Shown: in pieces, positions 5,008-63,160 of the stretch | How positions within the stretch are numbered: position 1 is the first letter of the stretch | Layout: each line of letters begins with the position of its first letter | NCBI RefSeq assembly: GCF_963921235.1 | Contig: NC_086097.1 | Location: 13,950,001-14,014,000 of the forward strand | Reading direction: 5' to 3' | DNA length: 64,000 bases | DNA from: Mobula hypostoma | Taxonomy: Eukaryota | The notes under the pieces: model-generated | What the model saw: only the letters and a program-made list of their open reading frames with translations | What the model was told of the DNA's origin: nothing | Databases searched by the model: none | Made by a program: the position numbers and the translations under genes

Positions 5008-5151
5008 TAAGCACAAAATAATCTGCAGATGCTGGGGTCAAAGCAACACTCACAACACGCTGGAGGAACTCAGCAGGTCAGGTAGCATCCGTGGAAACAA
5101 TCAGTCAATGTTTCGGGCCAGAACTCTTTGTCGGGACTAACTAACCCTTTG
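5008..5151 (-). mobile_element. Penelope-like terminal repeat, single arm, with degenerate hammerhead motif
   Basis: Family sequence ATCTGCAGATGCTGG...GCTGGAGGAACTCAGCAGG...GTTTCGGGCC; perfect 12-bp TSD TTAGTTTTACTG at 4996-5007 and 5152-5163. Confidence 0.85.
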
Positions 5152-5509
5152 TTAGTTTTACTGCCTTGACCATTCCTTTTGGGGGTTGTGGCATACGTCC
5201 TTGCCTTTATTGACACTGCATTTCACTGCACACAGATGCTTTGCGACAGAGCTAAAATATTGCAAGATGATAGCAAGGTTTGGTGTGAAGCAATAAGTGC
5301 ATTTGATGGCAGGGAAGAGGTTAAAACTAGAGGATGTGTGGAAGTTATCAACACCTGGATGTGATGAATGTGTGGAAATTGTGCTTAGAGACTAGATGAA
5401 ATGCAGTTGAAGGTCACGCTCTTCTGCACAGGCTTCCCTTCCCAATTATGCACTTTAATTTCTCCTATCTCCAAAGACCTGTCTCCTATTTAACATCTAA
5501 AAATCTCCC

Positions 5510-5660
5510 CTCTTCAGCTGATTATGGCTCCCAGATGTACCTCACGACCAACTCCAGAAGACATTTCATTCCCTCTAGATTGGCAGGACATTTATCTGAC
5601 ATCCTACACTGCAGGAACATAAAAGTCTTCCAGTTTAACATTGGGAAGACAGAGCCAAGG
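5510..5660 (+). mobile_element. Ancient L2-type LINE RT relic
   Basis: ADYGSQMYLTT...SRLAGHLSDILHCRNIKVFQFNIGKTE resembles the L2 motif ADDTQLY...LSDI..WM..NFLQLNIGKTE. Confidence 0.6.
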
Positions 5661-6121
5661 GACCAGAGTGCCCTTTACCTAGCCTGTCACCCACATACAC
5701 ACACAATATCTTGCCCCAGTGTTCTGACGACTCTTGTTCACACCTGACCTCTGGTAATGTCTGTGTGGAACCTGAACATTCTCCCTCCGAGAGTATGATT
5801 TCATCTCAGTAGTTAAGTTCCCTTGCACACCCAAAGGACATACTGGGGCATTGTAAGTTGCCCCAGAGTAAGTGAGTGATAGAATCTGAGAGAAAAATGA
5901 AATTGATGTAGGAGGATGCCTAATGGGCTGATTGGCCTTTTTCTGTACTGTATGAATCTATAATTATTGGTATTGGTATTGTTATTAGTTTATTGTTCAA
6001 AATTTGAATCAGGTTTAATATCACCGGCATATGTTGTGAAATTTGTTGACTTTGTGGCGGCAGTAAAATGCCATGTATAATAATAGAAAAAACATGAAAT
6101 ACAGTATATATATATATATAT

Positions 6122-7228
6122 TAGAATCAGAATCAGGTTTATTATCACCATCATGTGACGTGAAACTTGTTAACTTAGCAGCAGCAGTTCAATGCAATAC
6201 ATAACATAGAAAAAAAAGAAATAATAAATAAATAAATAAATAAATAAATTACAATATACGTATATTGAATAAATTTTTAAAACGTGCAAAAACAGAAATA
6301 CTGTATCAAAAAAAGTGAGGTAGTGTCCAAGGATTCAATGTCCATTTAGGAATCGGATGGCAGAGGGGAAGAAGCTGTTCCTGAATCGCTGAGTGTGTGC
6401 CTTCAGGCTTCTGTATCTCCTACCTGATGGTAACAGTGAGAAAAGGGCATGCCCTGGGTGCTGGAAGTCCTTAATAATGGACGCTGCCCTTCTCAGACAC
6501 CACTCCTTGAAGATGTCTTGGGCGCTTTGTAGGCTAATACACAAGATGTAGCTGACAAGATTTAAAACCCTCTGCAGCTTCTTTCAGCCCTGTGCAGTAG
6601 CACCCCCTCCATAACAGACAATGATGCAGCCTGTCAGAATGCTCTCCATGGTACATCTATAGAGGTTTTTGAGTGTATTTGTTGACATGCTAAATCTCTT
6701 CAAGTTCCTAATCAAGTATAACCGCTGTCTTGTCTTCTTTATAACTGCATTGATATGTTAGGACCAGGTTAGGTCCTCAGAGATCTTGACACCCAGGAAC
6801 TTGAATCTGCTCACTCTCTCCACTTCTGATTTCTCTGTGAGGATTGGTATGTGTTCCTTTGTCTTACCCTTCCTGAAGTCCACAATCAGCTCTTTCGTAT
6901 TGCTGATGTTGAGTGCCAATTTGTTGCTGCAGCACCACTCCACTAGTTGGCATATCTCACTCCTGTACGCCCTCTCGTCACCACCTGAGATTCTACCAAC
7001 ATTGGTTGTATCATCAGCAAATTTATAGATGGTATTTGAACTATGCCTAGCCACACAGTCATGTGTATATAGAGAGTAGAGCAGTGGGCAACGCACACAC
7101 CCCTGAGGTGCTGATTATCGGCGAGGAGAACATGTTATCACCAATCGGCACAGATTGTGGTCTTCCAATTATGAAGTGAAGGATCCAATTGCAGAGGGAG
7201 GTACAGAGGCCCAGGTTCTGCAACTTCT
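6122..7228 (-). mobile_element. Rex1/Babar-type LINE RT to 3' end
   Basis: [52 protein letters not shown]; tail AGAATCAGAATCAGG at about 6123. Confidence 0.9.
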
Positions 7229-7269
7229 CTATTATATATATATGTGTGTTGCTTGAGTTAGTGTTCTTG

Positions 7270-8046: not shown

Positions 8047-9535
8047 GGGGGTGGAGTAGTTGCATAGTGGTTAGCACAAAGTTTTACAGCACTAGTGACC
8101 TGGGCTCAATTCCCACCGCTGTCTGTAAGGTGATTGTACATTCCCGCCGTGACCATGTGTGTTCCTTTTCTTTTCAAATCATTTTATTATTATTATTATT
8201 ATTCAAAAAATAACATGAGTACATCGAAGTAAGCAACACTTACAATGTCTCAAGGAAAAAAAAAATTATTGTAAAGACTGAAAATTTTTTGTGATAATAA
8301 AAAAACCCTACTAAGCAGAAAAGTAGGAAAAAAAGCCCCATTAGGTGTACAACCCCGGAGTCATGCGTCATACAAAAAGCTTCTAAAGATAAACATCAAA
8401 CCGCCAGCAAGAAAAAAATATACCAGAAATTTACAATTAGATCGTGGAGAAAATCTATCAATTAACTCAAATGATAATAACGAGCAAATGAACCCCATCT
8501 TTTCTCAAAATCAAATAAAGGTTCAAAGGTTCGACTTCTAATTTTCTCCAAACTAAGACATAGCATCACTTGAGAGAACCATTGTGACAAAGTGGGAGCT
8601 GATGTATCCTTCCACTTCAACAAAATGGCCCTCCTGGCTATCAATGTAACAAATGCAATAATATGTTGGTCAGACACAGAGATACCATGGATATTTTGAG
8701 GAATTATTCCAAAAAGCACAGTTAATTTGTTAGGTTGTAAATTAATTTTAAGTGCTTTAGAAATCGTCGAAAAAACTGACTTCCAGAACTGTTCCAATAT
8801 AGAACAAGACCAAAAGATGTGTGTCAGTGTAGCTGTCTCAGTTTTACACCTATCACAATAACTATCAACATTAGGAAATATTTTAGACAGTCTCTCCTTC
8901 GTCAGATGGTAACGACGTACAATTTTAAATTGAATCAGTGAATGACTAGTACAGATTGAAGAAGAGTTAACCAGCTTCAGAATCCACGTCCAATCTTCTG
9001 TCATAAAAATTAAATTGAGTTTCTTTTCCCAATCTTGTTTAATCTTAAATAAAGGACGCTTATCCCATTGTAATAATAAATTATAAATTCTTCTAACAGA
9101 AACCTCATCGAAGGGTTCATACTCATAATGGTATCTAACAGGTCAGCCTCCAATATATAAGAAAAATTACTTAAATATCTTGTAAGAAATGTCTAACCTG
9201 AAGGTATTGTAAGAAGTGTGAGTATGAAAGAGAATATTTATCAAGTAATTGTTCAAAAGACATCAATCTATCTTCTTTAAATAAATCCAAAAAAGAATTA
9301 ATACCTTTATTTTTCCAAAGTAAAAAAATTGGATCACTCAAAGAAGGCTTACCATGTGCGTTTTCTCTGGGTGCTCTGGTTTCCTCTTACAGTCCAAAGA
9401 TGTACTGGTTGGTAGGTTATATGGTCATTGTTAATTGCCCTGTGACAGGGCTAGGATTAGATCTGGGGTTGCTGAGCAGAGCAGTTCAAAAGGCCAGAAG
9501 GGCCTTCTCTGTACTAAATCTCAATAAATTAATTA
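8047..9535 (+). mobile_element. tRNA-derived V-SINE (HE1-like) split by an L1 insertion; SINE parts at 8047-8163 and 9351-9535
   Basis: A-box-like TAGTGGTTAG and B-box-like GGCTCAATTCC; the V-domain (CCCGCCGTGACCATGTG|...GGGTGCTCTGGTTTCCTC) resumes after the insertion. Confidence 0.8.
8164..9350 (-). mobile_element. 5'-truncated L1/Tx1-clade LINE (ORF2 C-terminus and 3' UTR)
   Basis: ORF 8462-9004 contains LIQFKIVRRYHLT, the zinc knuckle CDRC-x7-HIFWSC and ARRAILLKWK; AATAAA plus A-rich end near 8166-8200; TSD ACCATGTG[T/C]GTT at 8152-8163 and 9351-9362. Confidence 0.9.
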
Positions 9536-10545: not shown

Positions 10546-11384
10546 GTCATAGTCATAGTCATAGTCATACTTTATTGATCCCGAGGGAAATTCATTTTTG
10601 TTACAGTTGCGCCATAAATAATTAAATAGTAATAAAACCATAAATAGTTAAACAGTAATATGTAAATTATGCCAGGAAATAAGTCCAGGACCAGCCTATT
10701 GACTCAGGGTGTCTGACCCTCCAAGGGAGGAGTTGTAAAGTTTGATGGCCACAGGCAAGAATGACTTCCTATGACGCTCTGTGCTGCATCTCGGTGGAAT
10801 GAGTCTCTGGCTGAATGTACTCCTGTGCCCACCCAGTACATTATGTAGTGGATGGGAGACATTGTCCAAGATGGCATGCAACTTGGACAGCATCCTCTTC
10901 TCAGACACCACCGTGAGAGAGTCCAGTTCCATCCCCACAACATCACTGGCCTTACGAATGAATTTGTTGATTCTGTTGGTGTCTGCTACACTCAGCCTGC
11001 TGCCCCAGCACACAACAGCAAACATGATCGCACTGGCCACCACAGACTCATAGAACATCCTCAGCATCATCCGGCAGATGTTAAAGGACCTCAGTCTCCT
11101 CAGAAAATAGAGACGGCTCTGACCCTTCTTGTAGACAGCCTCAGTGTTCTTTGACCAGTCCAGTTTATTTTCAATTCGTATCCCCAGGTATTTGTAATCA
11201 TCCAACATGTCCACACTGACCCCCTGCATGGAAACAGGGGTCACCGGTGCCTTAGCTCTCCTCAGATCTACCACCAGCTCCTTAGTCTTGTTCACATTAA
11301 GCTGCAGATAATTGTGCTCACAACATGTGACAAAGTTTCCTACCGTAGCCCTGTACTCAGCCTCATCTCCCTTGCTGATGCATC
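10546..11384 (-). mobile_element. Young Rex1/Babar-type LINE, 5'-truncated
   Basis: Open frame LQLNVNKTKELVVDLRR...YKYLGIRI...KKGQSRLYFLRRLRSF...RKSFLPVAIKLYN; tail reads (GTCATA)n on +. Confidence 0.92.
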
Positions 11385-11705: not shown

Positions 11706-11889
11706 GCAAGGAAATCTGCAGATGCTGGAATTTCAAGCAACACACATAAAAGTTGCTGGTGAACGCAGCAGGCCACGCAGCATCTCTAGGAAGAGGTACA
11801 GTCGATGTTTCGGGCCGAGACCTTGACTGTACCACTTCCTAGAGATGCTGCCTGGCCTGCTGCGTTCACCAGCAACTTTTATGTGTGTT
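11706..11889. mobile_element. PLE-derived foldback (two inverted terminal-repeat arms)
   Basis: Arms ACACACATAAAAGTTGCTGGTGAACGCAGCAGGCCA... and ...TGGCCTGCTGCGTTCACCAGCAACTTTTATGTGTGT are reverse complements; perfect 13-bp TSD TCTCAAAGCTTAT at 11693-11705 and 11890-11902. Confidence 0.9.
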
Positions 11890-12764
11890 TCTCAAAGCTT
11901 ATTGATCAGTTTTGCGGAGACACTAGGGATGATAGCTGTGATCAATAAAGAGTAACAATGCAATCAGCATCCAAGAAATGCATCTATGGAATTCTGAAGA
12001 ACTACCCCTCTACATCTCATCCCTCATTACCTGAAAGTTGTATCTTCTACCATTCTTTTAGTACTTATGCTGTTTACTGCTGATTTTCAATGATAGCAAC
12101 AGTAACAGAATCCACACCACAAAAAGAGGCCATTCCACCCATGCTGTCTGTGCTGTTGATAGCCTTCCTGTCAAGATCTTTAGAGCATCTTACAGCATTA
12201 TATGTGCTTGTTGCTGAAACGAACAGAACTAATCAGCATGCAGAGGGATAATCATTAAGTATTTTTTTTAAATTTAAAACTCCAGTCCATAGCTGTGAGA
12301 TATTCAGTTGCCACAAACACGCATTAGATTGACTGGTTTAATGAAATGCTGTTGGACAGGTTTTGCTGGATTTTTCATCAAACCATTAAAAAAAAGCAGA
12401 TAAAACTTTTCAGTGGTCATTTCCTCTTCTAGCAGCTTTTGTTCACCTTTTGAGGGAAAAGATTATACTAGATAAACCTGACATTCCAAATGCACATTCA
12501 TCGAGAGCTGCAGGTCAGGCCCTTCTGCAGAGTTTCCTTACAAAGATTTTCTGTACAGATAATTTTTTATTGATGTCTTCTTTAATTCTTTTCACTCACC
12601 TTTCAAGTTATATCTCTGTAAAAAATTCCTTTTTCCGACTGAGCACAGGTTTGTGAACCTCATGTAAATCCAGAGAGGTATTTGTGTAAAAAAAACTTCA
12701 GTGTAAGACCTCAGGCTTAAATCTAGGCCTACTGGTACAAAAAGACAATAATGATTTATAATCA

Positions 12765-14250: not shown

Positions 14251-14269
14251 GTCTTCGTCCAATTTCATT

Positions 14270-14530: not shown

Positions 14531-16003
14531 GTAACTCAGCATGTCCATGATGACTGTGAAGTACTCACCTATACTAATCTTCCCAGAACTTTGTCGTTTG
14601 CCCTCTAGGTGTTGGCTGTCCAAGCATTCATCTAAATGCTGTTTGAACGTTATAGGAATATTTTCCTCCACTACCTTCTCAGGTAGTATGATGCAGACCT
14701 CAAATATCTTCGCTGTGAAAAAAGATTTCCTTCAGGTCCACTCTAATTCCATCGTTCCTCATCTACAACCTATGCCCTGTGATGATAGATACCTAAGGCG
14801 ATATGCTTCCGAGCACAGAAATTACAGAAGGATTTTCTGTAATCTCTTTTCACTGACAGAATCAAAGGTTTCTGTAAGGTCAAAAAAGCCCTTGGACTGT
14901 GGTTAATGCTTCATCCTGTGTTTTTCTGTGACAAAAATTTTGTAAACTTTACTGAACAGTATCTGCATTGTGCCTGTGCACTTTCACAGACTTTCAAACT
15001 AACGTCAGATCACATCTGCCGGTGCAGATGTGTTGGTATGGAAGACAAGAGTATAATGTACTTCTTGCATAATCAAAGCTGCTAACATTCAATCACTGGA
15101 ATCCCTGTTATTATTTTGATAATTTCAGTTTGCATAATCACCTTCAGAAAGCTCGCTGTTACCAATGGATTCTGGCAAGTGCAATAAAATTGGAAACAGA
15201 GACAGGAACACAAAATAAAATTAAGAAGTTTTTATATAACTATTTAATAAACCTTTTGTACAAAAAAAAGATGAACTCTTGACCTGACAATCTATCCTAG
15301 TTATGGCCTTGCACCCTTGCATCCTTGTGGATTCATTTTCACAAGAAAATTAATCTCACAGTTGTATAAGGTGACATATATGTACTTTGATAATAAATTT
15401 ACTTCGAACTTTATTGCCTGTCTGCACTTCACTTTTTCTGTAACTATAACACATAAGATCATAAGAGGCCATTTGACCCATCAAGTGTGCTCCACCATTC
15501 TATCATGTCTGATTTATTATCCCTCTCAATCCCATTCTGCTGCCTTCTTCCCATAACCTTTCATGCCCTGACTAATCAAGTACCTATCAAACTCCACTTT
15601 AAACATAGACTTTAAGACTATGAGACATAGGCCCAGTATTAGACTACGACATGTCGTTATTGCCTTTCCCTTGTAATGAAGTTGTGAAATGATCTGTATA
15701 GATGGCATGCAAAACAAATTTTTTTCACTGTGCCTCAGTACCTGTGACAATAATAACCAATTATCAGAAAGACCTGTGTGCTATAGTACTGTGACCACAG
15801 CTTCCTTTTCTTAAGTTCAGGTTTATGATAGTCCAAGTACCCAAATGTCCCCAGTACTTCCTGTTTTTCACTGACATCTTACAGGTTTTTGAAGCACGTT
15901 TTAATGAAGTAAAATCTGTAAGGAGTCCCCACTTTGAGAAAAATCAGATCTTCCTGCACACTCCTCAGGTTCCAAGAAGAAACATTGCTCTGTTTCATAC
16001 ATC

Positions 16004-16103
16004 ATCACACACACAAAATGCTGGAGGAACACAAAAGGTCAAGTAGCATCTATGGATGGGAATAAACCGTCAGTGCTTTGGGCCGAGACCCTTCCTCAGG
16101 ACA
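16004..16103 (-). mobile_element. PLE terminal repeat, single arm, degenerate hammerhead
   Basis: CACACAAAATGCTGGAGGAAC...GGGCCGAGACCCTTCCTCAGGAC. Confidence 0.75.
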
Positions 16104-16234
16104 TACGTTACTTTCATCTATTTTCTTGCAACATGGAAGGAGACTAATCAGCTTAGTGAATCTCCACCAACTCTCAGAGTATCTCCCAGCAGTCATATTC
16201 CTGTCTCTCACACACGTGTATTAGCTTGCCTTCT

Positions 16235-17280
16235 CCGCTGAGACCTCACCCAATGTGCTCCCTGTACAGTCTCCTCTGTACCAATGAGACTTGACATCGA
16301 TTGGGGGACCACCTCATCATAACATGAGTACATAAGAAGTAGGAACAGGCGTAGCCAATCTGGTCCATCGAGTCTGTTCCACCGTTCAATAAGATCATGG
16401 CTGATCTGGCCATGGACTCATCTCCACCTACCTGCCTTTTCCCCATAACCCTTAATTCCCCTACTATGCAAAAATACCATCGAGTACCCGCACTCTATAG
16501 GCCACAAAAGCCAGGCTTTCCCGACGGCCACCTATTTCAATTCTACTCCCCATTCCTATTCCAACATGTCGGTTCATGGCCTCCTCTAATTCCACAATGA
16601 GGTCACTCTCAAGCTGGAGGAGCAACATCTCATATTTCATCTGGGTAGCCTCCAACCTGATGGATGAACAATGATTTTTCTAACTTCTGGTAATTTTTCC
16701 TCCCACCCTCTTCTCCATTTGTCCATTCCCCATTCTGGCTCCCCTCATGTCTCTTCTCTTCTCCTTGCCTGCCCATCAACTCTCTTGGAGTCCCTCCTCC
16801 TCCTCTTTCTCTCATGGTCCACTCTACTTTCCTATCAGATTTCTTCTTCTTCAGCCCTTTACTTCTTCCACCTATCAGCTCCCAGCTTCTCACCTGATTC
16901 CCCCCAACTCATAGTCATATTCATACTTTATTGATCCAGGGGGAAATTGGTCAATAAAGTATGACTATGAGTTGGGGGGAATCAGGTGAGAAGCTAGGAG
17001 CTGATAGGTGGAAGAAGTAAAGGGCTGAAGAAGAAATCTGATAGGAAAGTAGAGTGGACCATGAGAGAAAGAGGAGGAGGAGGGACACCAAAAACTTCTA
17101 CCCACCTACCTTTCCCCTCACCTGGTCTCGCCTATCACCTGCTAACTTGTACTACTTCCCCTCCCCTCTCCTTCCTATTCTGGAGTCTTCTCTATTCCAT
17201 TCTCAGCCTGAAAATGTTGACTGTTTATCCCCCTCCATAAATGTTTCCTGACCTGCTGATTTCCTCCAGAATCCTGGATA
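16235..17280 (+). mobile_element. Penelope-like element 3' part (GIY-YIG endonuclease remnant, pyrimidine-rich UTR, terminal repeat); contains a CR1 tail insert at about 16320-16478 and an inverted duplication
   Basis: CSLYSLLCTNET*HRLGDH...ATYFNSTPHSYSNMSVHGLL*FHNEVTLKLEEQHLIFHLGSLQPDG matches the PLE GIY-YIG C-terminal region. Confidence 0.85.
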
Positions 17281-18324
17281 GACTGTTTATAGTGGAGGAT
17301 GTAAAGTGAGGGAAGCACCAACGTTTGTGAAGTGCAGGGATAAGGTGGGTTGAATGACAATTAAACTTGAACTTGAACTTGAGTTAAGTACTGAGAACTA
17401 GGATTGCAGGATTAGCATAGATGGGTAATTGATAGTTGATGGGCCAAATGGCCTGTTCCTGTGTTTTTGATTATATCACTCATTCAAAGAGACAACATAA
17501 GCTGAACTAAGTTGTATGATCCTGCAGTCTAACTTTCTAGATCTCTTTTCCAGACGATTGCTTGCCCAGCACCCCACCCTATCTCCTTCCCTGAAACAAA
17601 ACCTCTCTGTTCTCCAGGCTAATATATAATGAACCAGACAACACCTACATCTCCCTCCTTTTAATTACTGGCTTTTTTGATGTTTGCATTAACTGCCTGA
17701 TGATGGTATGTGTAACTCTTGCCTCATGATTTATATTAATGTTCAGAAATCATTCACATAATAAATCTTCCCTTTCAGGAGACTGCTGCTCCCTTTGGTT
17801 TTGATTTACTGAGAGAAGGAGAAAAAAAAAATAGTTGCAGGAATCTTGGAGTGTTGCCAGAGTGCCCATCGGGGAATAGTTATGTGATTAGTACACCCTG
17901 ACAGATTCAACAGTGTGACACCAAACAAGTGAAGTGCACTTCCTAGGTTTTCCTTCCCACCTAACAGATGGGTGCTTTGTTTCTCTTGAACAAATACCAG
18001 ACATGCACGGGAGCTGGTGTTGAATGTGCTATTGACAGATCTGTGCCAATAATGCAGAGCAGCGGAGATCCAGGTACAATCATCAACCTTCTGCCTCCTC
18101 TGCTGTCCCTGAGTTCCTCTTCTTTGGGCTGCCTGATGTTTGGCCCCTCTGTCATTTATGGCCTCAGCTGCAGGCTCGGGGACTGTTTCCCAAAACTCCC
18201 ACTCGGTCTCCTCCGACCAGATGGCCCTTTCACCCTATCTCCAACCGAGCTTTCGGCCATCTTCCTAGTTTGGTTTTAAATGTATTTATCTTTCAGAAAT
18301 TGGAGCAAGAAAAGGCATTTGTTA

Positions 18325-18550
18325 CACATCAACATGCACCAAATGTTGGAGGAACAAGGAAGTCAGGCATCATCTGAGGACAGGAGAAATCAGTCAACAT
18401 TTTGAGCCAAGACCCTTCAACGGATTGATAGAGGCTCGTGGCCTGACAAGTCAACTGATTATTTCCTCCATAGCTGCTGCCAGTCTTGTTGAGTTTCTCC
18501 CATATTTTGTGTGTGTTTCTCAAAATTTACAGCATCTGCAGAATCTCATG
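18325..18550. mobile_element. Old, degenerate PLE-derived foldback
   Basis: Antisense arm (AAATGTTGGAGGAAC...GACCCTTCA) followed by sense arm (...TTTTGTGTGTGTTTCT...CAGCATCTGCAGAATCTC). Confidence 0.7.
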
Positions 18551-18800: not shown

Positions 18801-19033
18801 CCCCAAACACGAGGAAATCTGCAGGTGCTGGAAATTCAAGCAACACACACAAAATGCTGGTGGAACACAGCAGGCCAGACAGCATCCATAGGAAGAAGTA
18901 CTGTCGACGTTTCGGGCCGAGATCCTTCGTCAGGACTAACTGGTGAAGGATCTCGGCCCAAAGCATCGACTGTGCTTCTTCCTATGGATGTTGTCTGGCC
19001 TGCTGCGTTCCACCAGCATTTTGTGTGTGTTGC
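18801..19033. mobile_element. Young PLE-derived foldback with hammerhead motifs on both arms
   Basis: About 95-bp near-perfect inverted arms centred near 18938; perfect 17-bp TSD TCCAAGTATCTTTAAAA at 18784-18800 and 19034-19050. Confidence 0.92.
18903..18937 (-). ncRNA. Minimal type-I hammerhead ribozyme motif, core intact
   Basis: Minus strand reads AGUC-CUGACGA-AGGAUCUCGGCCC-GAAA-CGUC^GAC: conserved boxes, GUC cleavage triplet, stem I GUC/GAC and palindromic ACGU stem III. Confidence 0.7.
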
Positions 19034-19764
19034 TCCAAGTATCTTTAAAATGTTTTCAAGCATCTGCAGAATCTCTTGTGTGTATCTTTAAAGTGTTGTT
19101 AGCACACCAGCCACAAAGAGTCATAGAAAAGCTCAGCACTGAAACTGGCCCCTTGGCCCATCTAGTACATGCCAAACCATTTAAACTGCCTACCCCTGTC
19201 GACCATAGCCTTCCATAGCCCTACCATCCACGTACCCACCCAAACTCTGTTAAGTGTTGAAATTGAGCTCACATTTACTGCTCCACACACCCATGACCCT
19301 AAGTGAAGAAATTTCCCCTCATATCTCCCCAAAGTATCTCACCTTTCACCCTTAACCCATGATTTCTCATTGAAGTCTCACCCAGCCTCAGTTTTCTGTC
19401 AGCTAATTCCATAAATTGAACTTCCTCTGGGGTGAACCCTCAAGTTCTATTAAATTTCAGCACCGCAACTTATATCTATGCCTTCCAGTATATTCAACAC
19501 AAATTACGTGAAGTTAAAAATAAGCCAGATGAAATAAGGAGAGTCAATTTCCTTTCAAGACCATATTTATTTTTATGACACACTGCTAGTTACTTTGGTG
19601 ATCTAGCTGATGAAAATTCCAATTTATAAACTGAATTTAAATCCCTCATATAGCTCAGAATTTGATCTCTGGATTATTACTGAGGCAATTAACCACAGTT
19701 CCCCAACATACACTAACGTGCATTGGTGTCAAAGTTTAGCTAACAATTCCTCTGTGAAGAATTC

Positions 19765-21925: not shown

Positions 21926-21971
21926 GCCTTCTTTCACCTAGTTGTCCATACCTCTCTTTTTAAGCCAACTG

Positions 21972-22155
21972 AAGCAACACACATCCAATGCTGGAGGAAC
22001 TCAGCAGGTCAGGCAGCAATAATGTAAATGAATAAACAGTCAACATTTTGGCCCGAGACCCTTCATCAGGTCTCATGGCTGACTTGCTGAATTCCTCCAG
22101 AATTTTGTGTGTGTGTTCTTCCGCATTTTCAGAATCTGCAGAATCCTTTGTATTT
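21972..22155. mobile_element. PLE-derived foldback
   Basis: Antisense arm ending GAGACCCTTCATCAGG (CUGAUGA box intact, GAAA box mutated), then sense arm GACTTGCTGAATTCCTCCAG...TCTGCAGAATC. Confidence 0.8.
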
Positions 22156-28300: not shown

Positions 28301-28369
28301 AGATTTTAAAAGACCTTGATTTCACAAGTTATGGTGGGGGGAGATAGTTTGTTTGGGTGCTTCCATATT

Positions 28370-47062: not shown

Positions 47063-47063
47063 T

Positions 47064-47150
47064 TTCAGTCCTGCCGAAGGATTTCGGCCCGAAATGTCAA
47101 CTGTACTCTTTTCCTAGATGCTGCCGGGCCTCCAGCACTTTGTGTGTGTG
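47064..47150 (+). mobile_element. PLE terminal repeat with hammerhead motif (47066-47103, A6>C)
   Basis: CAGTC-CTGCCGA-AGGATTTCGGCCC-GAAA-TGTC-AACTG. Confidence 0.8.
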
Positions 47151-49321
47151 GCCGTTGGTTGTGGGAACACCTCAATGGTGGGACGAGTGATGTTGAGTGA
47201 AGTTATCCCCTTTGTTCAAGACCCTGATGGTTGAGGGATAGGAACAGTTCCTGAACCTGGTTTTGTCAGTTCTGAAGCTCTGTGAGAAGAGAACGTGTCC
47301 TGGACGTGGGGTCCCTAATGATCAATGTTTGGGATAGCTTTACCCATGGTGGACAAATTGAGTTATTACTAAATTTATTAGTAAGTTGATTCATTATGAA
47401 CAAATGTTATAAGATACAGTGAAAAGCTTGTCCTGCATCCTGTTCATACAGATTAATTCATTACAGCAATGCATTGAAATAGGACAAGGTAACACAATTA
47501 CAGAGTGCAGGATAAAGGGTTATGGGTACAGAGATAGGATTTGATAGGATGAAACTAGTTCTGTTGGATTAATGGAAAAGTTACATAGCTTCACTGTGTG
47601 TGTTACATATTGTTAAATAGTTGACATTTTGGTGCTGATGAAAGTTTTCAGCCTGAAGCGTTAACAGTTTACTCTTTTCATAGATACCTCCTAGCCTGCT
47701 GAGTTCTTCCAGCATTTTGTGTGTGTTGCTAAGATATGATCATGTTTGGTCAAAGATCCAATGGGTACAGACCATGGACAAAGTCTCACAGAAGTAAACT
47801 TAAGAACTGAACACGGTCTTACTCAGAAAACATGTTCTGACACAGTCATTGGAAATCTGACCACAAATCAAGCAGGAGGAATGGCTATTCATTGAGAAAT
47901 GTTCTCTGTAGAGCAAAGAATCTTACAGTGAGATACAATGGACTTAGTCAAAGTTATGAAGAGTTTATAGAGAATAATAAGCAACAGAGTTAATTACCAA
48001 AGGAGAATTCTAGATTAAGACTATATAGCAGATCGGAAATTCTTCTGCCTGAAAACTTGGTGCAACCAGATTCAATAGTAGTATTGAAAGGGGAATTGCT
48101 TAAGGGACCGACGTCAATGCATGGGACTCGTGGCTCTACAATGGCTCTCTGCCTCTCAGGTTTATGGAGCTCTCCCATCTCTCTCGCCTGCTGAGGGCTG
48201 GTGTGCTTGTTTCTACGGTCACCCCGCTCTCTCAGGCCCTCTCGCTGCACTGCCACCCCGGTGAGGCCCGCACCCTCACCACTCCATGAGGGCTGAATAT
48301 TGTGAGAGTGCTGAGGAGTGAGCTGGCACAGACATAAAGGCTTCGTCCTGTGCTGTGTCACTCTGGTGAGTCGAAATGTACTGCAAACCTCAGAGCAGCA
48401 AATGAATGCTGCTTTGAGAGGAGGTCTTGCAAGAACATGAGATCAAACTGTACAAATAACATTCTAACCAATACACTTCATGTGGCCTGTACACACAGTG
48501 TGAATATGCTTGTGTCTACAATGACGTCCAATTATGTGGAAACTCATTTTCTATAATTTGTGTATACATATCATTTGTATACAGTTTTAAAAACAAACTG
48601 CAGATTAAGAATATTGCACTAGAAAAACTAATTTATTTAGAAACCATTTTCTATTTACGAAAACAGGGTAGTTTATTGGAGCTTAAGAGGCTTACTGGCT
48701 GATATTTACACTGGATCTATTCTAGTAGGTTCATGAATAATTAACAGAATAACATTTACTACAGCGAAAATGGGACTGGAGAATAGAACACTAAACTTCA
48801 GGAAAATTACTCTCATTTAGGAGAACTGGTTTGTAAACTGGTGATAAAACAGAAGATGTTTAACTCTGATTCCACAACAAGGCATTGTCAATAAGGATCA
48901 ATGGTACAGGGACGGAGAGTTCAAAAATAGCAGAAGTGAACAGCTGCAGACTCAGCCCTTTGACTTTTTACACACAGGTGAACCTGTAGATCAGGCGCTT
49001 TACCTGCCTTCACTTTCACTCCATAACCCCGATGTATGAACGTCTGCTCACTGGGCAAGTCTGAGAGGACTGCCCACTGCCTCTTATCAACTGTGGGTCA
49101 TGCTTTGTACCATTCATTCGGAGGTTCAGCATTCGGCTTTGAATACCAGAGACTTGACCACAAAATTGAACAAGTGCATTCTCTAAGTACTTTTACAACC
49201 AATTGGAGGTTTGATTGAGGAAATGTGTGTGTGTGTGTGTTTTTTCCCCTCCAATACAGAGTTTTCCCAGGTTATGAAGGAACTGACTTATGGAAATCCT
49301 TTATAATGCAAAGTCCCCTAT

Positions 49322-49384
49322 ATTTTAAAAGAATTTTCCAATATAGTATTTCTTTCATACTATATTGGAAAATTCTTTTAAAAT
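49322..49384. repeat. Perfect 28-bp inverted repeat with a 7-nt spacer
   Basis: ATTTTAAAAGAATTTTCCAATATAGTAT-ttctttc-ATACTATATTGGAAAATTCTTTTAAAAT. Confidence 0.95.
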
Positions 49385-50716: not shown

Positions 50717-51194
50717 ATGCAGAGTGAAACAATGAAAAAAAAGATTAATTTTAGACCTACAGGAAAATGGGCTTATGGACTTTTCTCAGGAACTTAACCC
50801 TACTTAACCCAGGGAGTAGCAAATCAAAACATAAGAGATTCTGCAGATGATGGAAATCCAGGGCAAAAAACAGAAAAATCTGGACGAATTCAGCAGCGTC
50901 TATGGAAATAAACAGTCAACATTTCGAGCCGACACCCTTCATCATGACTGGAAAAGAAGGGTAAGATGCCCATATGCTGTGACAGAAAACATTAACAGCC
51001 TCAGACATAAAATCAATCTAGGCATATAAGCTATTTTATGTATTTATTTTGATTGTGCTTTGTTATTATGGTGCTCTTTATCATATTGTAGGTTCTTCGA
51101 CTGCTTTGGATCCAGAGGAACAATTATTTTGTTCTCCTTTAAACTTGTGCACTGGAAATGACATTGAACAGTCTTGAATCTTGAACCTTGAAGG

Positions 51195-53050
51195 TTCAAA
51201 GTATTAAGGAAGCCACTATGAGGAAAGATTGCAGCCAAGGATTTTAAAGGAAGTGGGTACAGAAGGATTGGAACCATCAATTGAATCCCCCCCCCCAAAA
51301 AAAAAGCTCACTGAATTCCAGGAGACTGGAAAACTGTAAATGTGTCTCTCTTGTTCAGAGAGGAAGGGAGATCGTGTGGGAAATTGTGGACCAGTTAGCT
51401 TAACATCTGTCATTGGCAAAATGCTGGGAGTCAATTATCAAGGTGTTAGAGTTTATAATTAAGTGAGAAATAACCAGTCATTTAGTGCAATCAGAGAAAG
51501 TCAACATGTTTTAAGAAAGGTGAATGGTATTTGATAAATTTGTGACAGATCATTAAGGATGTTACAAGATGAGTCAATAGAGAGGAATCTGCAAAATTAT
51601 CTTGTTTGGATTCCCAGAAGGCAATAACAAAAATCCACATAGTAGATTTGCACGCAAAATAAAGATTTGCAGTATTGGGGGAAATGTGTTAGCATGGACT
51701 GGAGGCAAGTTATCACATAAAAGATAGTGTGGAAAAATAAATAGCCTTTTGCAGGCTGGACAAATTAGTGAACTGTCCTAAGAATTAGTCCCTGTTGCTC
51801 AATTTCTTAATATCTGTATTAATGACTGGAGAAGGGCAGAGTGCAAGCCAATGATATGATTAGTGGGGGGATATCTTACATTAAGGATGCTTGGATTCTT
51901 AGAAGAGATAGAGATGGGATGAGTGAGTAGGAAAGAAACTTGACAAGTGTACAGTGGATTGTTCAAAAGTGCAGTGGTGAAAGAGGACTTGAATCAAGAA
52001 GAATCAAAAGAAAAACTATTATGTAAATAGAGGAAGACTGCAGATGAGTGGGGTGCTGAAGGATCTGGGTGTATAGGACATATGTAAATCCCAAAAAGTT
52101 AGGTGACAGAGGTAACAACTAGTTAGGAAAGCAATTTGATATTGAATGCTAATCCCAAGGAGTTTAAACGTAAAATAGAGAAGTGTTGTTACATAGACAC
52201 AAGATATACTGCAGATCCTGGAAATCTAGACCAATGCATACAATGTGCTGGAGGAGATCAGCAGATCAGGCAGCATCCATGGATGGGAACGAACAGTCAC
52301 CAGCTCAGGTTAAGACCCTTCATCAGGACTGCAAAGGAAGGGTGAAAAGCTCAGAACAAGAAGGTGGGGCGAAAGGAAAAAGCACTATAAGGTGGTAGGT
52401 GATAGGTGAAACCGAGAGAGAAGTAAAAAGCTGAAAGTTAAATGGTAGAAGAAATAAAGGGCTGGAAAAGGGGGAATCTGATAGGAGAGGACAGACAGAA
52501 GGCCATGGAAGAAAGGAAAGGGGGAAGAACAGCAGAGGGAGACGATGGGCAGGTTGGAAGAGAAGGTGTGAGAGGGAAACAAGAATAGAGAATGGTGAAG
52601 GAGAGGAGGAGAGTAAGTATTGTTACAATTGTACAGGCTGCAAGTGAGTTAACTTCCATGGTAATGGGGACAGATTTGTTCCCCTTATTTAAGGAAAATT
52701 ACATAGAAGCATTGGAGGTAGTCCAGAAGAGGTTCACTGTGCTAATTCCTGGGAAGAGAGGCCGGTCCTATCGCGAGCAGCTAAAGAAACTGGAATTGTA
52801 TTGCGGTGAATCTCTGGAATTTGTTTTGTGGCGAATCTCTGGACCTGCAAAAAGTTGTAGAGACTTACTTAGATTGCTGTGGGTATTCAAAGAAGTGGGG
52901 GATACATTTTTGAAACTGGGGAGTGGTGTACTGTAGTGAATTGGAACAGAAGAAGAAATGAGGAATGGGGTAGACGAGCCATGATCATGTGGAATGGTGA
53001 GGCAGGCTTGCAGGACCAGGTGACTCTCTCCTGCTCCTATTTTCTCCTGT
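51195..53050 (+). mobile_element. Old, highly decayed CR1 LINE split by a PLE at 52194-52614
   Basis: PGDWKTVNV, NCGPVSLTSVIGKML, LDSQKA, ALEVVQKRFTVLIPG. Confidence 0.75.
52194..52614 (-). mobile_element. PLE 3' UTR and terminal repeat
   Basis: GACCCTTCATCAGGACTG (reverse complement of CAGTC-CTGATGA) and a purine-rich UTR; TSD AAGT[G/A]TTGTTACA at 52181-52193 and 52615-52627. Confidence 0.85.
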
Positions 53051-55143
53051 TGCTATGTCCTCCTTCAACAAGTGATTACAGTTATAAGACTTACTTCTTA
53101 AGCATTTTCTTTTCAATTGCAAACATTTCTGGTGGTAAACCAGTGACTGTATTGCTGAGTACTGGAATTTTGTAATGTAAATCCTATCAGTATCATTTGG
53201 TGATTTCATTGCATGGAAAATACAACTTTGCAAAATGTGCCTTTGAAAAGTTATGGCTGAAACAAATAATTTATGTGTATTTGTGAGGCTTGAAATCCAG
53301 AACATATGCTACGTTAATTTGCAAATGAAGTCAAGATCTCTGAAATAAGAGAGGGCCACAGGCATTGCTGAAAGCTCTATAGCAAGTACACCATGGGGAG
53401 CCTATGGTTTAAGACTATAAGACCATAAGATATAGGAGCAGAATTAGGCCATTTGGCCCATCAAGTCTTCTCCGACATTTCATCTTGGGTGATCCATTTT
53501 CCCACTCAGCCCCAATCTCTTGCCTCCTCCCCATATCCCTTCATGCCCTGACCAAACAAGAATTTTTCAACCTCTGCCTTAAATATACCCACTGACTTGG
53601 CCTCTACAGCCACCTGCAAAGAATTCCACAGATTCACCACTCTCTGGCTAAAGAAATCCCTGCTTATCACCATCCTAAACAGAAGAATGGCTAGTGCAAT
53701 GCTTTACCGTACCAGCGACCCATGTTCAATTCCCGCTGCTGCCTGCAAGGAGTTAGTGCGTTTTCCCCGTGACCGCGTGGGTTGCCTCCCAGTGCTCCAG
53801 TTTCCTCCCACAGTCCGGTTAATAAGTTATTTGGTCACTGTCAATTGTCCCATGATTAGCAAAGGTTAAATCGAGGGTTGCCGGGCGGCAAGGCTCAAAG
53901 GACTAGAAGAGCCTTTTCCAAGCCGTATCTCAATAACTAAATCAATAAATATTCTGAGGCTCATGTGGAAACTCCAGAAAGAAATGTGAAAACAGGGTTC
54001 AGGCCTAAGGAAGAACAGAAGTGCACAAGCTCAATTAAATGTGAGTAGGAGTATAGCCCCTCAAGCCTATCCCAGCATTTAATATCCATCGTGGGTTATC
54101 TTCTCCTGGTCCACATAGCCATTGATTCCTTGATCTTCAAAAATTTATTGTTCTCCTCTTTTCTTGTCTCTAACTATCTTACTTCCACAACTTTCTGCAG
54201 TAGGAACTCACACAAGGCTCAACAGGAGAGATGCAAAGTGGAGGTTTGGCCTAGCTGAGGAACCTAAAACTAAAGGCCTCAGTCTCAAAATAAGGGGTAA
54301 GCTACCTGGGACTCAAATTAGGAAAAAAAACTCATCACTCAGGAGAGCGATAAATCTTTCATTTTTTTATTCCTGGCTGCCTTGACACTCAGTTATTGAC
54401 TTAATTATAACAGAGATTGATAGATTTCTGCATATTGGACAAATAATGGAATAATTAAGTCGGCAGGTTTAATGTCATGTGTATAAATACAGAGAGGTGT
54501 ACATACAGTGAGAATCTTTCTTGCAGCAGTGTCATGGGCATATAGATTCAAACTACACATAAAACATAAATTATACGAGACAGTGCAGAGCAAAATAAAA
54601 GCACTGAGCAAAAACAAGACTTTAGTGCAAAAAGGAAACAAAATAAAATATAGGGATAAAGCAAGGAAAAGAGGAAATGACATCTGAATCAGGTTTAATA
54701 TCACAGGTGTATGTCATGAAGTTTGTTGCTATGTGAAGCAGTACATTGCAATAAATAATAATAAAAACTGTATATTACAGTAAGTATATGCCTGCGCAAA
54801 TGGTGCGTGCGGGCTCGATTTCAATGGTTAAGATAAGTTTGGATAGGAACATGGATGGTAGGGGAATGGAGGGCTATGGTTCCGGTGCATGCAGATGGGG
54901 GTATGCAGTTTAAATGAATCAGCATGGACTTGATAGGCCAAAATGCATGTTTCTGTGCTATACTCTGTGACTCTATATTGAAAAGATTAAATTAAGTAGT
55001 GCAAAAAGAGAACAAAGATGTTGTGAGGTAGCATTCACGTGTTCAACGTCCATTCAGAAATTAGATGGCAGAGAGGAAGAAACTATTCCCAAAATGTTTT
55101 TTGAGATAGAATCTCTCTGAGCTCATTGAGATAGAAGTTCAGA

Positions 55144-57029: not shown

Positions 57030-57320
57030 AATTATTTTTATTTATTGACCTACAGCATGGAATAGGACCTTCTGGCTCTCTGAGCCACGCCGCTCAGCAA
57101 TCCGAAGAGTTAACCCTAGCATAATCACTGGACAGCTTACAACGATCAATTAACCTACCAATCGGTACATCTTTGGACTGTGGGTGGAAACTGAAACATC
57201 TGGAGAAAACCCATGCAGACACGGGGAGAGCGTACAAACTCCTTACAGGCAGCGGCAGGAGTTGAACCTGAGTCGCTAGTACTGGAAGGCATTGTGCTAA
57301 CCTCTATGCTACCGTGCCGC
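57030..57320 (-). mobile_element. Near full-length V-SINE
   Basis: Tail, V-domain and tRNA-like head (GTGCTAACCTCTATGCTACCGTGCCGC) in reverse orientation. Confidence 0.8.
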
Positions 57321-57351
57321 TCCATGTACATGAATACTGATGTACACGAGT

Positions 57352-58675: not shown

Positions 58676-59345
58676 GCACAGGAGATTTTGCAGACGCTGG
58701 GAAATCCGGAGTAACACACACAGAGTGCTGGAGGAACTCAGCAGGTCAGGCAAAGTAAACAGTCGATGTTTCGGTCCGAGACACTTCTTCAGGACTGGAA
58801 AGTAAGGAGAAGATGTCAGAATGTTTGGGGAGGTGAAGGAGGCTAACTAGAAGGTGATAGGTGAAGACAGGTGGGTGGAAAAGGCAAAGAGCTGGAGAGG
58901 AAGGAATCTGATAGGAGAGGAGAGTGGACCATGGGAGAAAAGGAAGGAGGAGAAGCAGCAGGGGAGGTAACCGGCAGGTAAGGAGAGGCCAGAGTGGGGA
59001 ATATAAGAAGAGAAAATGGGTAGAGGAAAAGAAAAAAAGAGAAAAAAAATTACCAAGAAAATCAATACTCATGCCATCAGGTTGGAGGCTACCTAGACGA
59101 AGTGTGAGGTGTGGCTCCTCCAACGTTAGCCACATCATGATAGAAGAGGAGGTCATGGACCTACATCTCAGAACAGGAATGGGGATATGAGTTAAAATGG
59201 TTGACCACTGGGAAATTCTACTTTTGGCAGATGGAGTGAAGGTGCTCGACAAAACAGTCCCAAATTTATACTGGATGTTACCAATGTAGAGGAGGCTACA
59301 TCAGGAACTCTGGATATGACCCCTACAGATTCACAGGAAAAGTGA
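58676..59345 (-). mobile_element. PLE 3' part: GIY-YIG remnant, UTR and terminal repeat
   Basis: Minus-strand CESVGVI...CSLLYIG...LEEPHLTLRLGSLQPDGMSIDF, then the UTR and the hammerhead-bearing repeat. Confidence 0.9.
58760..58797 (-). ncRNA. Minimal type-I hammerhead ribozyme motif, core and stem I intact
   Basis: CAGUC-CUGAAGA-AGUGUCUCGGACC-GAAA-CAUC^GACUG; 5-bp stem I CAGUC/GACUG and an AUC (NUH) triplet. Confidence 0.7.
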
Positions 59346-61317
59346 AAACTAATTCCTTTGGCATCTCACATTCGTGTGTCTGTGTGCATATATGCAAACA
59401 GATTTTGCTCGATGGTAAGCAATGGTCTGTATGCAACGTCTACTCACATTAAAAGATACCATGCACAGGGATTTCCAACACCACAATAAGAACTTCAGGA
59501 CCTAGAATTCCAAGACCTTCACGGACAATTCCAGCTCAGATAGATCTGAGTGCCTCTCAATCATCAAAGCTCAAGAAACCCAGGCTCTTTGATATTTGAC
59601 ATCACTGCACTGAAGGAGATAATTTGGGTGGGAGATGGCCAGTTTAAACACAAGTCAGTGAGTATGCCTTCTTCTGGAAAGCAAACCAGAACAAGCACAC
59701 AGCAAAATGGTCATATCAAGCTACCCGTGCAAATGCATTGTCAGCCATCTGTGACCCCATCTATGGAAGCGACCACAGTTCCCGCACAGACATATCAGCA
59801 CAGACAAAACCAGAGTCAACCATAGTGTGTGTGTCTGAGTGAGTGTGTGTTTCAGCATACAATGATATTTTAGGATAAGGTTTCAAAATGCCCATTTAAT
59901 AATCAATTTTATGGACTTCAAAATTTGCCTGTAGCTCCTCAACATTGAAAATCCAATAATCATAGCCTCGGATATAAAAGTACTTTTCAAGAGTTCTTAA
60001 CAGTGAACTGAAAACACACACATACAATTGGCATCCACTAGCTATTTAAGATGACTACAAAGGAAGTGCCCTTATGTTAAATTCTCAGTCATTTTAAAAT
60101 CCCTCGATTGTCTCTCCTTTTCCTATTTCTGCTGTCTCTTTCAGCCTTACCACCCTCCTCCATTCCTCCAATTCTGATTTTGCCATAGGTTTCCATGCCT
60201 TCAGCTGCAAAACCTGGGTATGGAGGGCTCTAGTCCATGTCTGGGCTATGGGACTAGACACATTAATAGTTTGGCATGGACTAGATGGGGCAAAGGGCCT
60301 ATTTCTGTGCTGTAGTGTTCTATGACTCTATAACCACACATTCTGGAATTCCCTCTCTAAACCTCGCCAGCTTGTGACTTTTACCCTCTCGTCTAACTTT
60401 TTCCTTAAAACTTGTGCCTTTGGTTAATCTTCTGGTTGCTTGCAATATCATTTCCTTATGTGTTGTACTTGGTTTGCTAACTATTCTGTTGGATATTCGA
60501 GGAGGTAATGTCATTATTGCATAAAAAACATCAAAATTACGCTGCTCTTGTAAAGATAAGAACTCTGTCTTCAATATCGTGGAACACTAAAGCAGAACTC
60601 GTCAAAGATGGTAATGCTGAAAGCTTTAAACATGAGAGATTCTGCAGATGCTGGATGGTGGGTGTCCTGATGAAGGGTCTAGGCCTGAATACTACCCCTC
60701 AACCATCAGGCTCTTGAATAAAAGGGGATAACGACACTCACCTGCCCCATTATTGAAATGTTCCTGCAACCAACTATCTCACTTTAAAGACTCTTCATCT
60801 CACGTTTTCGTTTTTTATTGTTCTTTATTTACATTGATATTTACATGTTTGTTGTCTTCTGCACTCTGGTTGATCTTTCATTGATCCTGTTATACTTAAC
60901 TTTCTATAGATTTTCTGTGCATGCCCACAAGAAAATGAATTTCAGGGCTGTATATGGTGACATATGTATATATACTTTGATAATAAAATTTACATATAAA
61001 TTTGAACTTTGAATCTATTCCCCTCCATAGACACTGCCTGATCTGCTGAGTTCCTGCAGCATTTTGTGTCAGATGTTGCAAGCTTTAAAGTGTTGGTTAC
61101 ACTTACAAGTTCTTGCTTACCATCCACTTTCACTTGATTCACAAGGTCATTTGGTAAATCCTCTGCTGGCTGTGGTACAGAGTAATACTGATGAACAAGG
61201 TCCATGCTGGGGCTGCCAGTTTCATTAATGCACACATCTCAGGGGTGAGCAAAGCTGACTCAGGGACAAGAGTGTACCAGATGAATCGTTGGTGACATCA
61301 GGGTATTCTGTAATAAG

Positions 61318-61960
61318 ATGGCGTGTGGTCGCAAAGTGGTTAATCTACTGGACCTGCATCCAGAGGCCAGATCCATCGTTCCAAGTATGGGTTCCAATCC
61401 CACTTATGGTAAATCTGGAATGAAAATTCCAGTGCCAGTAGCAATGTCCAATAAGTTATTGTTACTGCCACTGACATGTCTAATACCAGAAGGGGGCAAT
61501 TTCAAAGGAGATGTGAGAGGCAATTTTTTTTTACACAGAAGGTGGTGGAATACACTGCCTGGGCTGGTGGTCAAAGCAGATACATTAGAGACTTCAAGAG
61601 ATGTTTAGGTAGACACATAAATGTGAGGAAAACAGAAGGAAATGTACAACGTTTGTACAAACGTACATTGTGTAGGCAGAAGAGATTAGTTTAGCTGGTC
61701 TTTTGATTACTAATTTAATTTGTTTGGCAGAGCATTGTGAGCAGACAGGCCTGTTCCTGTGCTGTAATGGTCCATGTTCTATGTTCTAAGGAACAGATTT
61801 CGAGAAAGAAAAATCTGATCCACCAACAGAACCCTGGCACCCTTATCTGGTCTGGCGCAAATGTGACTTCAGATCCGTAAATGCGGTTGAATCTCAACTG
61901 TTGCTTCCTCTATTAAGAGGATGACAACAAGTGACAGTGTTGCCTACATCCAGTGAATGG
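61318..61960 (+). mobile_element. Old tRNA-derived SINE (SacSINE1-like) split by a CR1 3' fragment at about 61475-61788
   Basis: Head AGTGGTTAATCTACTGGAC...GGTTCCAATCCCAC; body CCTTATCTGGTCTGGC..ATGTGACTTCAGA; a related head occurs at about 41935-42050. Confidence 0.55.
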
Positions 61961-61973
61961 CAAATATATTTAT

Positions 61974-62450
61974 TCAGTGGCCACGTTATTAGGTATCCCT
62001 GTACACCTGCTCGGTAGAGCAAATATTTAATCAGCCAGTCCTATGGCAGCTACTCAAAGCATAAAAGCATGTAGACATGGTCATGAGGTTCAGTAGTTGT
62101 TCAGACCAAACATCAGAATGGGGAATGATTGTGGAATGATTGCTGGTGCCAGATGGGGTAGTTTGAGTATCTGGGGTTTCTGGGATTTTCACACACACCC
62201 TTCTCTAGAGTTTAGATAGAATGGTTCAAGAAACAAAACAAATTTAGTGCGTGGCAGTTCAGTGGGTAAGAGTGTCTTGTTAATGAGAGAAATCAAAGGA
62301 GAATGGTCAGACTGGTTTGAGCTTACAGGAAGGCCATAGTAACTCAGATAATGATGCGTTACCACAGTGGTATGCAGAAGAGCATCTCTGAATCCACAGC
62401 ATGGCAGGCCTTGAAGTGAATGGGCTGCAACAGCAGAAGACCACAAACAT
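61974..62450 (+). mobile_element. Tc1/mariner non-autonomous derivative
   Basis: TIR-like CAGTGGCCACGTTATTAGGTA and a transposase N-terminus homologous to 41405-41745. Confidence 0.85.
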
Positions 62451-62677
62451 CTGAGGTGCTTTCTTCATAACTGCATCAATATGTTGGGCCCAGAACAGGT
62501 GCTGATTGTTGGGGAAAGATAAAAAAGAATGCTTTGATTATTGCAATGGGAATTGAATACAAAGGAATGGAGTTTATACTTCAGTTATATAGGACATCTA
62601 GTATAACGTTGGTCTCCTTAGTTAAGGAAGAATGGGAGCAGTTCAGAGAACGCTAACCAGACCCACACTGAATGGGC

Positions 62678-63160
62678 AATGCACAAAGTGCTGGAAGATC
62701 AGGAACCATCTGTCAAAGGAAATGGAGTCAAATCTTCACATCAAGACCCTTTATATGAGTCCAGAACCTAGACTGTCCATTTCCTCCACAGATTAATTAC
62801 TTGTTTATTTATTGGGATACAGCATGGAATAGGCCCTTCCAACCCTTGGAGCACACCATACAGCAATCCCCCAGTTTAACCCCAGTCTAATCACAGCACA
62901 ATTTACACTGACCAATTAACCTACCAACCAGTATGTCTTTGGACTGTGGGAGGAAACAGGAGCACCAAAAGGAAACCCAGATAATCACAGGAAGAAAGTA
63001 TAGACTCCTTAAAGGCAATGACAGGAATTAAACTGGTGTTGTAAAGTGATGTGCTAACCACTACGCCACCATACCACTGCAGATTATGCCTGACCTGTTG
63101 AATTTCTCCAGCCTTTTTTGTATTGCTCCAGACTCCAGCATCTGTGGTATTTTATGTCAT
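62678..63160. mobile_element. Old PLE-derived foldback split by a V-SINE (-, about 62795-63076)
   Basis: Arms GCACAAAGTGCTGGAAG...CAAGACCCTT and ...GCCTGACCTGTTGAATTTCTCCAGC...CCAGCATCTG flank the SINE. Confidence 0.65.

Follow-up and report, generated by a model that had tools for sequence, protein, structure and literature searches.

Can a hammerhead motif that is scattered through a genome as part of a dispersed repeat still act as a ribozyme, and on which RNA would it act? The question is raised by 64,000 nucleotides of the Mobula hypostoma genome (contig NC_086097.1, positions 13,950,001 to 14,014,000; 'the window' below means this whole stretch), in which a sequence-only reading had described about 20 copies of a repeat carrying a minimal hammerhead ribozyme and had attributed them to a Penelope-like element (PLE). 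We find that the repeat is the 3' end, or pseudo-long terminal repeat (pseudo-LTR), of an endonuclease-bearing PLE of Neptune type, and that its motif is almost certainly a PLE minimal hammerhead. The explanation that best accounts for our results, and that we hold to be probable, confines any role of the hammerhead to source elements and treats the dispersed ends as inert.

The parent element is still present in intact form. Loci with an exact core extend upstream into coding sequence for a reverse transcriptase (RT) and a GIY-YIG endonuclease, and a protein search recovered five open frames of 1043 codons among 139 scored candidates. Locus L085, one of these five, is a complete partial tandem: a first hammerhead (597-624) is followed by an open reading frame (ORF) for RT and GIY-YIG, which runs from a start codon at 763 to 3810 (1016 amino acids), and by a second hammerhead (4110-4137), with 3513 nt between the two cut sites. 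In intact partial tandems the motif lies 138 nt before the start codon and again about 325 nt after the stop codon. The L085 protein contains DKG and YIDD motifs, a CX4CX2C linker at residue 883 and a GIY-YIG domain with CCHH, in which CxxC lies between the GIY and YIG boxes and two His lie downstream. Sibling copies match the Pfam families RVT_1 (E 5e-5) and GIY-YIG (E 6e-5 to 1.5e-4), mostly just below curated cut-offs, and the best named homologue of the element protein is a Chiloscyllium punctatum (shark) sequence that is 72% identical across 76% of the query. Partial tandems with pseudo-LTRs occur in both L085 and L084; the two repeats of L085 are 99.0% identical and share two variants that are found in 0 and 1 of 30 other copies. 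Such intact copies, with their pair of motifs around an RT/GIY-YIG ORF, bear out the proposal that we are dealing with the terminal repeat of a PLE, which carries a type I minimal hammerhead like those already published. As a separate observation, a frameshift recurs in the same C-run between RT thumb and linker in L084 (about 3120), L065, L079 and L063; it may reflect a selection of homopolymer slips, because the search query carried a shift there too.

Within the window, an iterated nucleotide profile made from the window copies detects 28 arms of the repeat at 22 loci, 12 of these arms forming six head-to-head inverted pairs. Most copies are only 100-170 nt long. The repeat is present at all eight places cited in the sequence-only reading, on the strands given there, and the majority sequence of the 16 motifs above the ungapped threshold is the very consensus that had been drawn by eye, CAGUC-CUGAUGA-A-GGGU-CUCG-GCCC-GAAA-CGUC^GACUG. 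The individual copies depart from it: only 12 of the 28 arms match at 28 or more of its 38 positions, two retain CUGANGA together with GAAA, and a single one retains the whole core with ACGU (18901-18938, minus strand; three of four pairs in stem II, four of five in stem I). The motif at 58760-58797 (minus strand) keeps both boxes, with two of four stem II pairs and without the ACGU palindrome. The estimate of about 20 hammerhead-bearing copies is therefore not borne out, nor is a view of the window copies as working ribozymes supported. Coding remnants of GIY-YIG do lie upstream of the repeat at two loci, as had been noted (16482-16679, plus strand, tblastn E 5e-21; 59058-59315, minus strand, E 1e-10), although the first of these loci has lost its hammerhead core. 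The proposed comparison with Rfam hammerhead models returned no hammerhead family at E<=10, either in the window or on an intact motif (L085 560-680); we read this as a limit of the models and not as evidence against the motif. Long frames of the window with Pfam matches are retroelement remnants, and no host gene was identified in its 64 kb.

The family is nonetheless extremely abundant, as the sequence-only reading had expected. Counts were made over the 3.48-Gb, 200-contig assembly, with reversed patterns as controls. A core pattern that is independent of the family has 101,640 matches, versus 389 in the control. Core-intact motifs thus have a density of about 29 per Mb; 64 kb would hold 1.9 on average, and the window itself has two, one of them from another family. 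All of the first 100 matches listed, from the start of contig C1 (the window's contig), belong to this PLE family. The exact 28-nt form occurs 9,516 times with C11.1 and 46,653 times with U11.1, each with 0 in the control. A 25-nt motif downstream of the hammerhead (<=3 mismatches) is found 440,469 times in the genome and 15 times in the window, which is therefore about twice as rich as the genome average. In one DNA run the contig depth at the 3' end is about 55 times that at the start of the ORF, depth not being copy number. Raw DNA runs of other organisms gave 5 and 1 reads (two runs).

How is the motif maintained in such a family? We compared the majority sequence of 15 old loci with that of 29 young ones. 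Between these subfamilies the motif is identical at 33 of 38 positions, against 140 of 311 (45%) in the 3' untranslated region (3' UTR), and neither the core boxes nor the extra A nor the palindrome differ. The changes that do occur are one-sided and preserve base pairing: in stem I a C-G pair has become U·G, and in stem II a G-C pair has become G·U. Variation within the core is greatest at N7. Loose ends of contigs at 3922 and 3958 of L084 flank the motif in two runs. Among protein-selected loci, which are source-like copies, 29 of 37 motifs have both boxes and the UH of the cleavage site. A different picture emerges from 53 unselected motifs, in which non-CpG core positions are retained in 425 of 477 cases, stems and loop in 765 of 901 and CpG sites in 354 of 530: here the core decays about as fast as the stems, with no excess conservation. 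In 51 of these 53 motifs the extra A is present, and CG prevails at 15.2-16.2. The extra A after A9 had been likened to that of a viroid hammerhead; the residue is indeed there, but the analogy is superfluous, since Cervera and De la Pena (2014, PMC4209133) count an extra nucleotide here among the conserved features of minimal hammerheads in PLEs. The pair G10.1-C11.1, also conserved in the published PLE motifs (PMC4209133), is found in the older forms and in the majority of the unselected motifs. Over all 90 motifs, a set made up mostly of near-identical young copies, 13 of 1000 shuffles reach the observed pairing. The conservation that the sequence-only reading had suggested looking for is thus present between subfamilies, while covariation of the stems is absent within the family. 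The simplest reading would be that source elements are under constraint and that copies decay neutrally once inserted.

The ends of the insertions bear on how the copies are made. All 30 exact-core loci are truncated at the 5' side, within 1407 nt of the cut site; their 5' ends range from -28 to -1407, with 10 of the 30 between -28 and -64, and an inverted arm is adjacent in 15 of the 30 rows (two rows being one locus). The 3' ends are bimodal, at +60-79 in 28 and +100-119 in 34 of 69 motifs (62 in total), and the two modes, about 35 nt apart, correspond to the optional tail of PLEs. Since copies end 3' of the cut site, reverse transcription would start there and pass back through the site, and motif-bearing insertions would therefore have been copied from uncut or re-ligated RNA. 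A junction at the cut site itself is seen in 235 of 96,352 young copies, versus 83 at a control position two bases downstream; as the junction pattern catches an estimated 18% of random junctions, at most about 1.4% of copies start at the cut site. By eye, more than half of the first 100 cut-site junctions listed have CAG upstream, that is, a fold-back on the stem I repeat. Fourteen junctions picked by hand (11 non-CAG, 3 CAG) comprised 11 inversions, many of which use the stem I repeat as microhomology, and 3 direct joins to other DNA. We rejected a pile-up of 5' ends at the cut site as evidence of cleavage, although a modest excess is possible. Separately, L092, L094 and L096 hold insertions of about 100 nt that start at the predicted cut site and are joined directly to unrelated DNA; they are candidate copies of cleaved RNA, not clearly above background.

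Taken as a mechanism, a source-limited hammerhead would operate as follows. The element protein would start reverse transcription inside the RNA, at two points, and copy back through the uncut or re-ligated hammerhead; most events would stop early and leave hundreds of thousands of short motif-bearing ends. These scattered ends would decay neutrally, fastest at CpG, with selection keeping the motif only in source elements. There the motif would probably have weak cleavage activity, either in dimers held together by the ACGU palindrome or assisted by the element protein, and cleavage would trim or circularise tandem transcripts, two cuts releasing a 3513-nt unit. That cleavage takes place conditionally and in source-element RNA only is a model we favour by a narrow measure; that the single or inverted copies of the window are inert passengers appears very likely.

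Several results weigh against this account. The stretch 30-100 nt after the motif is also conserved between the subfamilies (52 of 70 positions) and could therefore serve protein binding or a promoter. The 53 unselected motifs show no compensatory covariation, 176 of 1000 shuffles reaching the observed pairing. The most amplified form has G10.1·U11.1 (46,653 versus 9,516 exact copies); a G·U pair at this position slows hammerheads, and the change to U11.1, which falls at a CpG, has a predicted cost of about 1.9 kcal/mol. The monomer is predicted to pair G5-G8 with C15.2-C17 (-11.0 kcal/mol, versus -7.0 for the active form), stems I and II have predicted probabilities near 0 in a context of 230 nt, and the predicted minimum of the dimer is a plain duplex. 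Finally, the placement in Neptune draws on protein motifs rather than on an RT tree with named references, and is to be taken as provisional. A register shift that would give the U11.1 form an A-U first pair in stem II was considered and rejected (predicted probability 0.02).

These same points give some weight to the strongest rival, namely that the motif has ceased to be catalytic and persists because it serves as a promoter, binds protein or marks RT initiation, or because it hitch-hikes beside such a signal. The G10.1·U11.1 pair of the most amplified subfamily, the inactive predicted folds, the conserved downstream sequence and the lack of a 5'-end pile-up at the cut site would all follow. 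In the Poseidon element of Anolis carolinensis, PAc, ribozyme mutations left insertion in vitro unaffected, and none of the RNA reads had its end at the site (Frangieh et al. 2024, PMC11167929). On the other side, the subfamilies have boxes, extra A and palindrome in common despite an alignment of 45% over their 3' UTRs, other families surround this core with unrelated stems, and addition of protein does bring about cleavage by the PAc motif (PMC11167929). The predicted inactive folds agree with the low activity reported for minimal motifs and the absence of activity in single ones (PMC4209133, as far as consulted). We regard a loss of catalysis as a tentative alternative, clearly behind cleavage restricted to source elements.

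A second rival goes further than weak cleavage. Double cleavage and ligation would give a 3513-nt circular RNA as the obligatory template of full-length and more-than-unit copies, linear uncut RNA yielding mainly short ends; the hairpin may in addition promote template switches, which would cluster in or just upstream of the motif as do the 10 of 30 5' ends between -28 and -64. A cleaved linear unit could not template the ORF, because its 5' end is just 60-119 nt away from the RT start points. L085 is more than unit length, with its 99.0% identical repeats and their two shared rare variants, and the circle model has already been proposed for PLEs (PMC4209133, in part). However, such a DNA structure could also come from read-through of a tandem donor or from a template jump, tandem read-through explains L085 just as well, uncleaved RNA is the dominant PAc substrate in vitro (PMC11167929), and the case comes from one element only. 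We consider both the circle and the associated template switching unlikely.

More doubtful still is cleavage of host transcripts by the intact motifs among the dispersed copies, whether in cis or in trans, at a biologically relevant rate, an idea put forward in the sequence-only reading. With 101,640 core-intact motifs at about 29 per Mb, many must lie in introns, and trans-dimers through ACGU are conceivable. Yet the sole window arm with a whole core belongs to an inverted pair, which would fold into a long hairpin, single minimal motifs do not cleave in vitro in the published tests we could consult (PMC4209133), and unselected copies show no excess of conservation or pairing; we think host cleavage very improbable. 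Least tenable, and already largely refuted, is an independent non-autonomous family (a short interspersed element, SINE, or a non-LTR retrozyme) spread as a small ribozyme circle: most window copies are indeed 100-170 nt long, and retrozymes, which derive from PLE pseudo-LTRs, have been reported in one chondrichthyan genome (in the literature as partly consulted), but the 5' ends lie anywhere between -28 and -1407, reaching without a break into 3' UTR and ORF, no head-to-tail short arrays are seen in the window, and the sequence is common to intact autonomous elements.

The copies of the repeat in the window are collected in the table below. In the element at 16482-17293 the 3' UTR is pyrimidine-rich and has an internal inverted duplication (16840-17120), whose purine-rich arm yields chance CTGAAGA...GAAA matches.

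Table. Copies of the PLE repeat in the window and state of their hammerhead motifs
Feature	Positions	Strand	Remarks
5'-truncated PLE end	5018-5144	-	hammerhead relic (5102-5139) with broken first core box
Inverted pair of PLE ends	11708-11900	both	+ arm starts at predicted cut site; stem I junction, first core box missing
PLE end	16002-16106	-	relic 16067-16104 with broken GAAA box
GIY-YIG remnant (16482-16679), 3' UTR and PLE end	16482-17293	+	hammerhead core deleted
Inverted pair of PLE ends	18325-18547	both	relics of both arms broken
Inverted pair of PLE ends, young subfamily	18806-19077	both	
Sole whole-core motif of the family in the window	18901-18938	-	CUGACGA, extra A, GAAA, ACGU, UH
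Inverted pair	21967-22117	both	relic 22037-22074 (-) without G12
Inverted pair	24952-25179	both	two relics, each broken
PLE end	27654-27749	+	broken relic
PLE end and part of 3' UTR	27975-28308	+	relic 28197-28234, U4 altered
Inverted pair	33268-33475	both	relics broken or absent
PLE end	36851-36975	+	broken relic
Diverged PLE end	45567-45642	-	core not recognisable
PLE end	47064-47159	+	relic 47066-47103, A6 altered
PLE end	47630-47735	+	broken second core box
PLE end	50830-50960	-	relic 50913-50950, C3 altered
PLE end	52201-52346	-	relic 52294-52331, second core box broken
GIY-YIG remnant (59058-59315), 3' UTR and PLE end	58683-59351	-	motif 58760-58797
Short hammerhead fragment	60662-60691	+	
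PLE end, only part 3' of motif	61010-61085	+	
Diverged PLE end	62678-62762	-	
PLE end, only part 3' of motif	63075-63136	+	

Other repeats share the window. At 30079-30440 (plus strand) lies a second hammerhead-bearing repeat, in which a minimal motif with intact core and an 18-nt stem-loop II (30406-30439) comes after an ORF remnant. The corresponding longer-stem-II pattern has 101 matches in the genome versus 16 in the control; by eye, about 69 of the 100 listed belong to the 30079-30440 family and 19 to another, and both families have the same core with a self-complementary stem of their own. The repeat probably represents another PLE clade, and its likeness, in our estimation, is to Poseidon; its ORF remnant (30079-30381) has no Pfam match and no phmmer match among 120 retrieved homologues. 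At least two more low-copy families of minimal hammerheads with a different stem II occur in the assembly (for instance at C59:23105454, C66:29927607 and C80:5876476). A further dispersed family with a tRNA-like start, which we presume to be a SINE, is found at 8065-8163, 25342-25498, 33421-33625, 53685-53841, 57086-57326 and 62852-63041. Two 3' coding copies of a long interspersed nuclear element (LINE), at 10676-10975 and 35420-35719, are 97% identical, with a Pfam ALKBH8_N match, and suggest a young LINE family. Near-perfect hairpins at 22569-22678 (about 110 nt) and 49323-49383 (about 60 nt), with only sub-threshold Rfam microRNA matches, are possibly similar to miniature inverted-repeat transposable elements.

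The identification itself is ordinary, since elements of this kind are already published, and what the family adds is unusual abundance. We found no description of it in cartilaginous fishes in the literature as far as consulted, and Repbase, Dfam or some supplements may already list it. Should the circle model hold, the family, with its intact 1016-amino-acid ORFs and about 100,000 core-intact motifs, would be a vertebrate system for a direct test of what PLE hammerheads do in vivo. The existence of intact source-like elements means that the ribozyme can be assayed in its natural context. Templates that are uncleaved or re-ligated, together with a top subfamily bearing the weaker G·U pair, bear on whether such hammerheads help transposition or ride along with it.

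Comparison with known systems places the element as follows, each source being taken from the parts available to us. Minimal hammerheads occur in the pseudo-LTRs of metazoan PLEs, with an extra nucleotide after A9 and a palindromic 15.2-16.2 among their traits (PMC4209133). Every feature we tested agrees with them apart from two, the G·U variant and a stem II of 4 bp, where schistosome families have 7-8 bp; the consulted parts of that paper do not name cartilaginous fish. The count of about 100,000 compares with about 9,000 in Xenopus and 4,000 in coelacanth, obtained with a different descriptor (PMC4209133), and about 29 core-intact motifs per Mb is the top density among the published figures compared, again across differing descriptors. 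As in the Neptune clade, a single ORF encodes RT and then GIY-YIG, with DKG, a CX2-5CxxC linker and CCHH, and copies show a partial tandem, an inverted 5'-truncated arm and an optional tail of 30-40 bp (Craig et al. 2021, PMC8557442); no structural difference was found in this comparison, which was made by motifs. The linker zinc finger is also present in Nematis and is absent from Poseidon (PMC8557442). Animal non-LTR retrozymes (PMC7229834; bioRxiv 10.64898/2026.07.22.740005) resemble the family in their type I hammerhead, their relation to PLEs and their very high copy number, axolotl having 126,247 canonical hammerhead motifs (bioRxiv 10.64898/2026.07.22.740005), but they are non-coding tandem repeats of fixed unit, each with a hammerhead, whereas here we see the dispersed, variably truncated ends of an autonomous element. 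PAc (PMC11167929) is alike in its pseudo-LTR hammerhead and in two tail-defining 3' end points downstream of it. It is a Poseidon element without the linker zinc finger, in contrast to the CX4CX2C linker found here, and its cut site lies 26 nt inside the ORF, with the RT start sites also within the ORF, whereas ours lies 138 nt before the start codon, with the end points in the 5' leader. In PAc, reverse transcription begins at two internal sites and uses mainly uncut RNA as its substrate, and protein is required for cleavage by the hammerhead (PMC11167929); the scarcity of cut-site junctions and the presumed internal RT starts of the present element agree with that behaviour.

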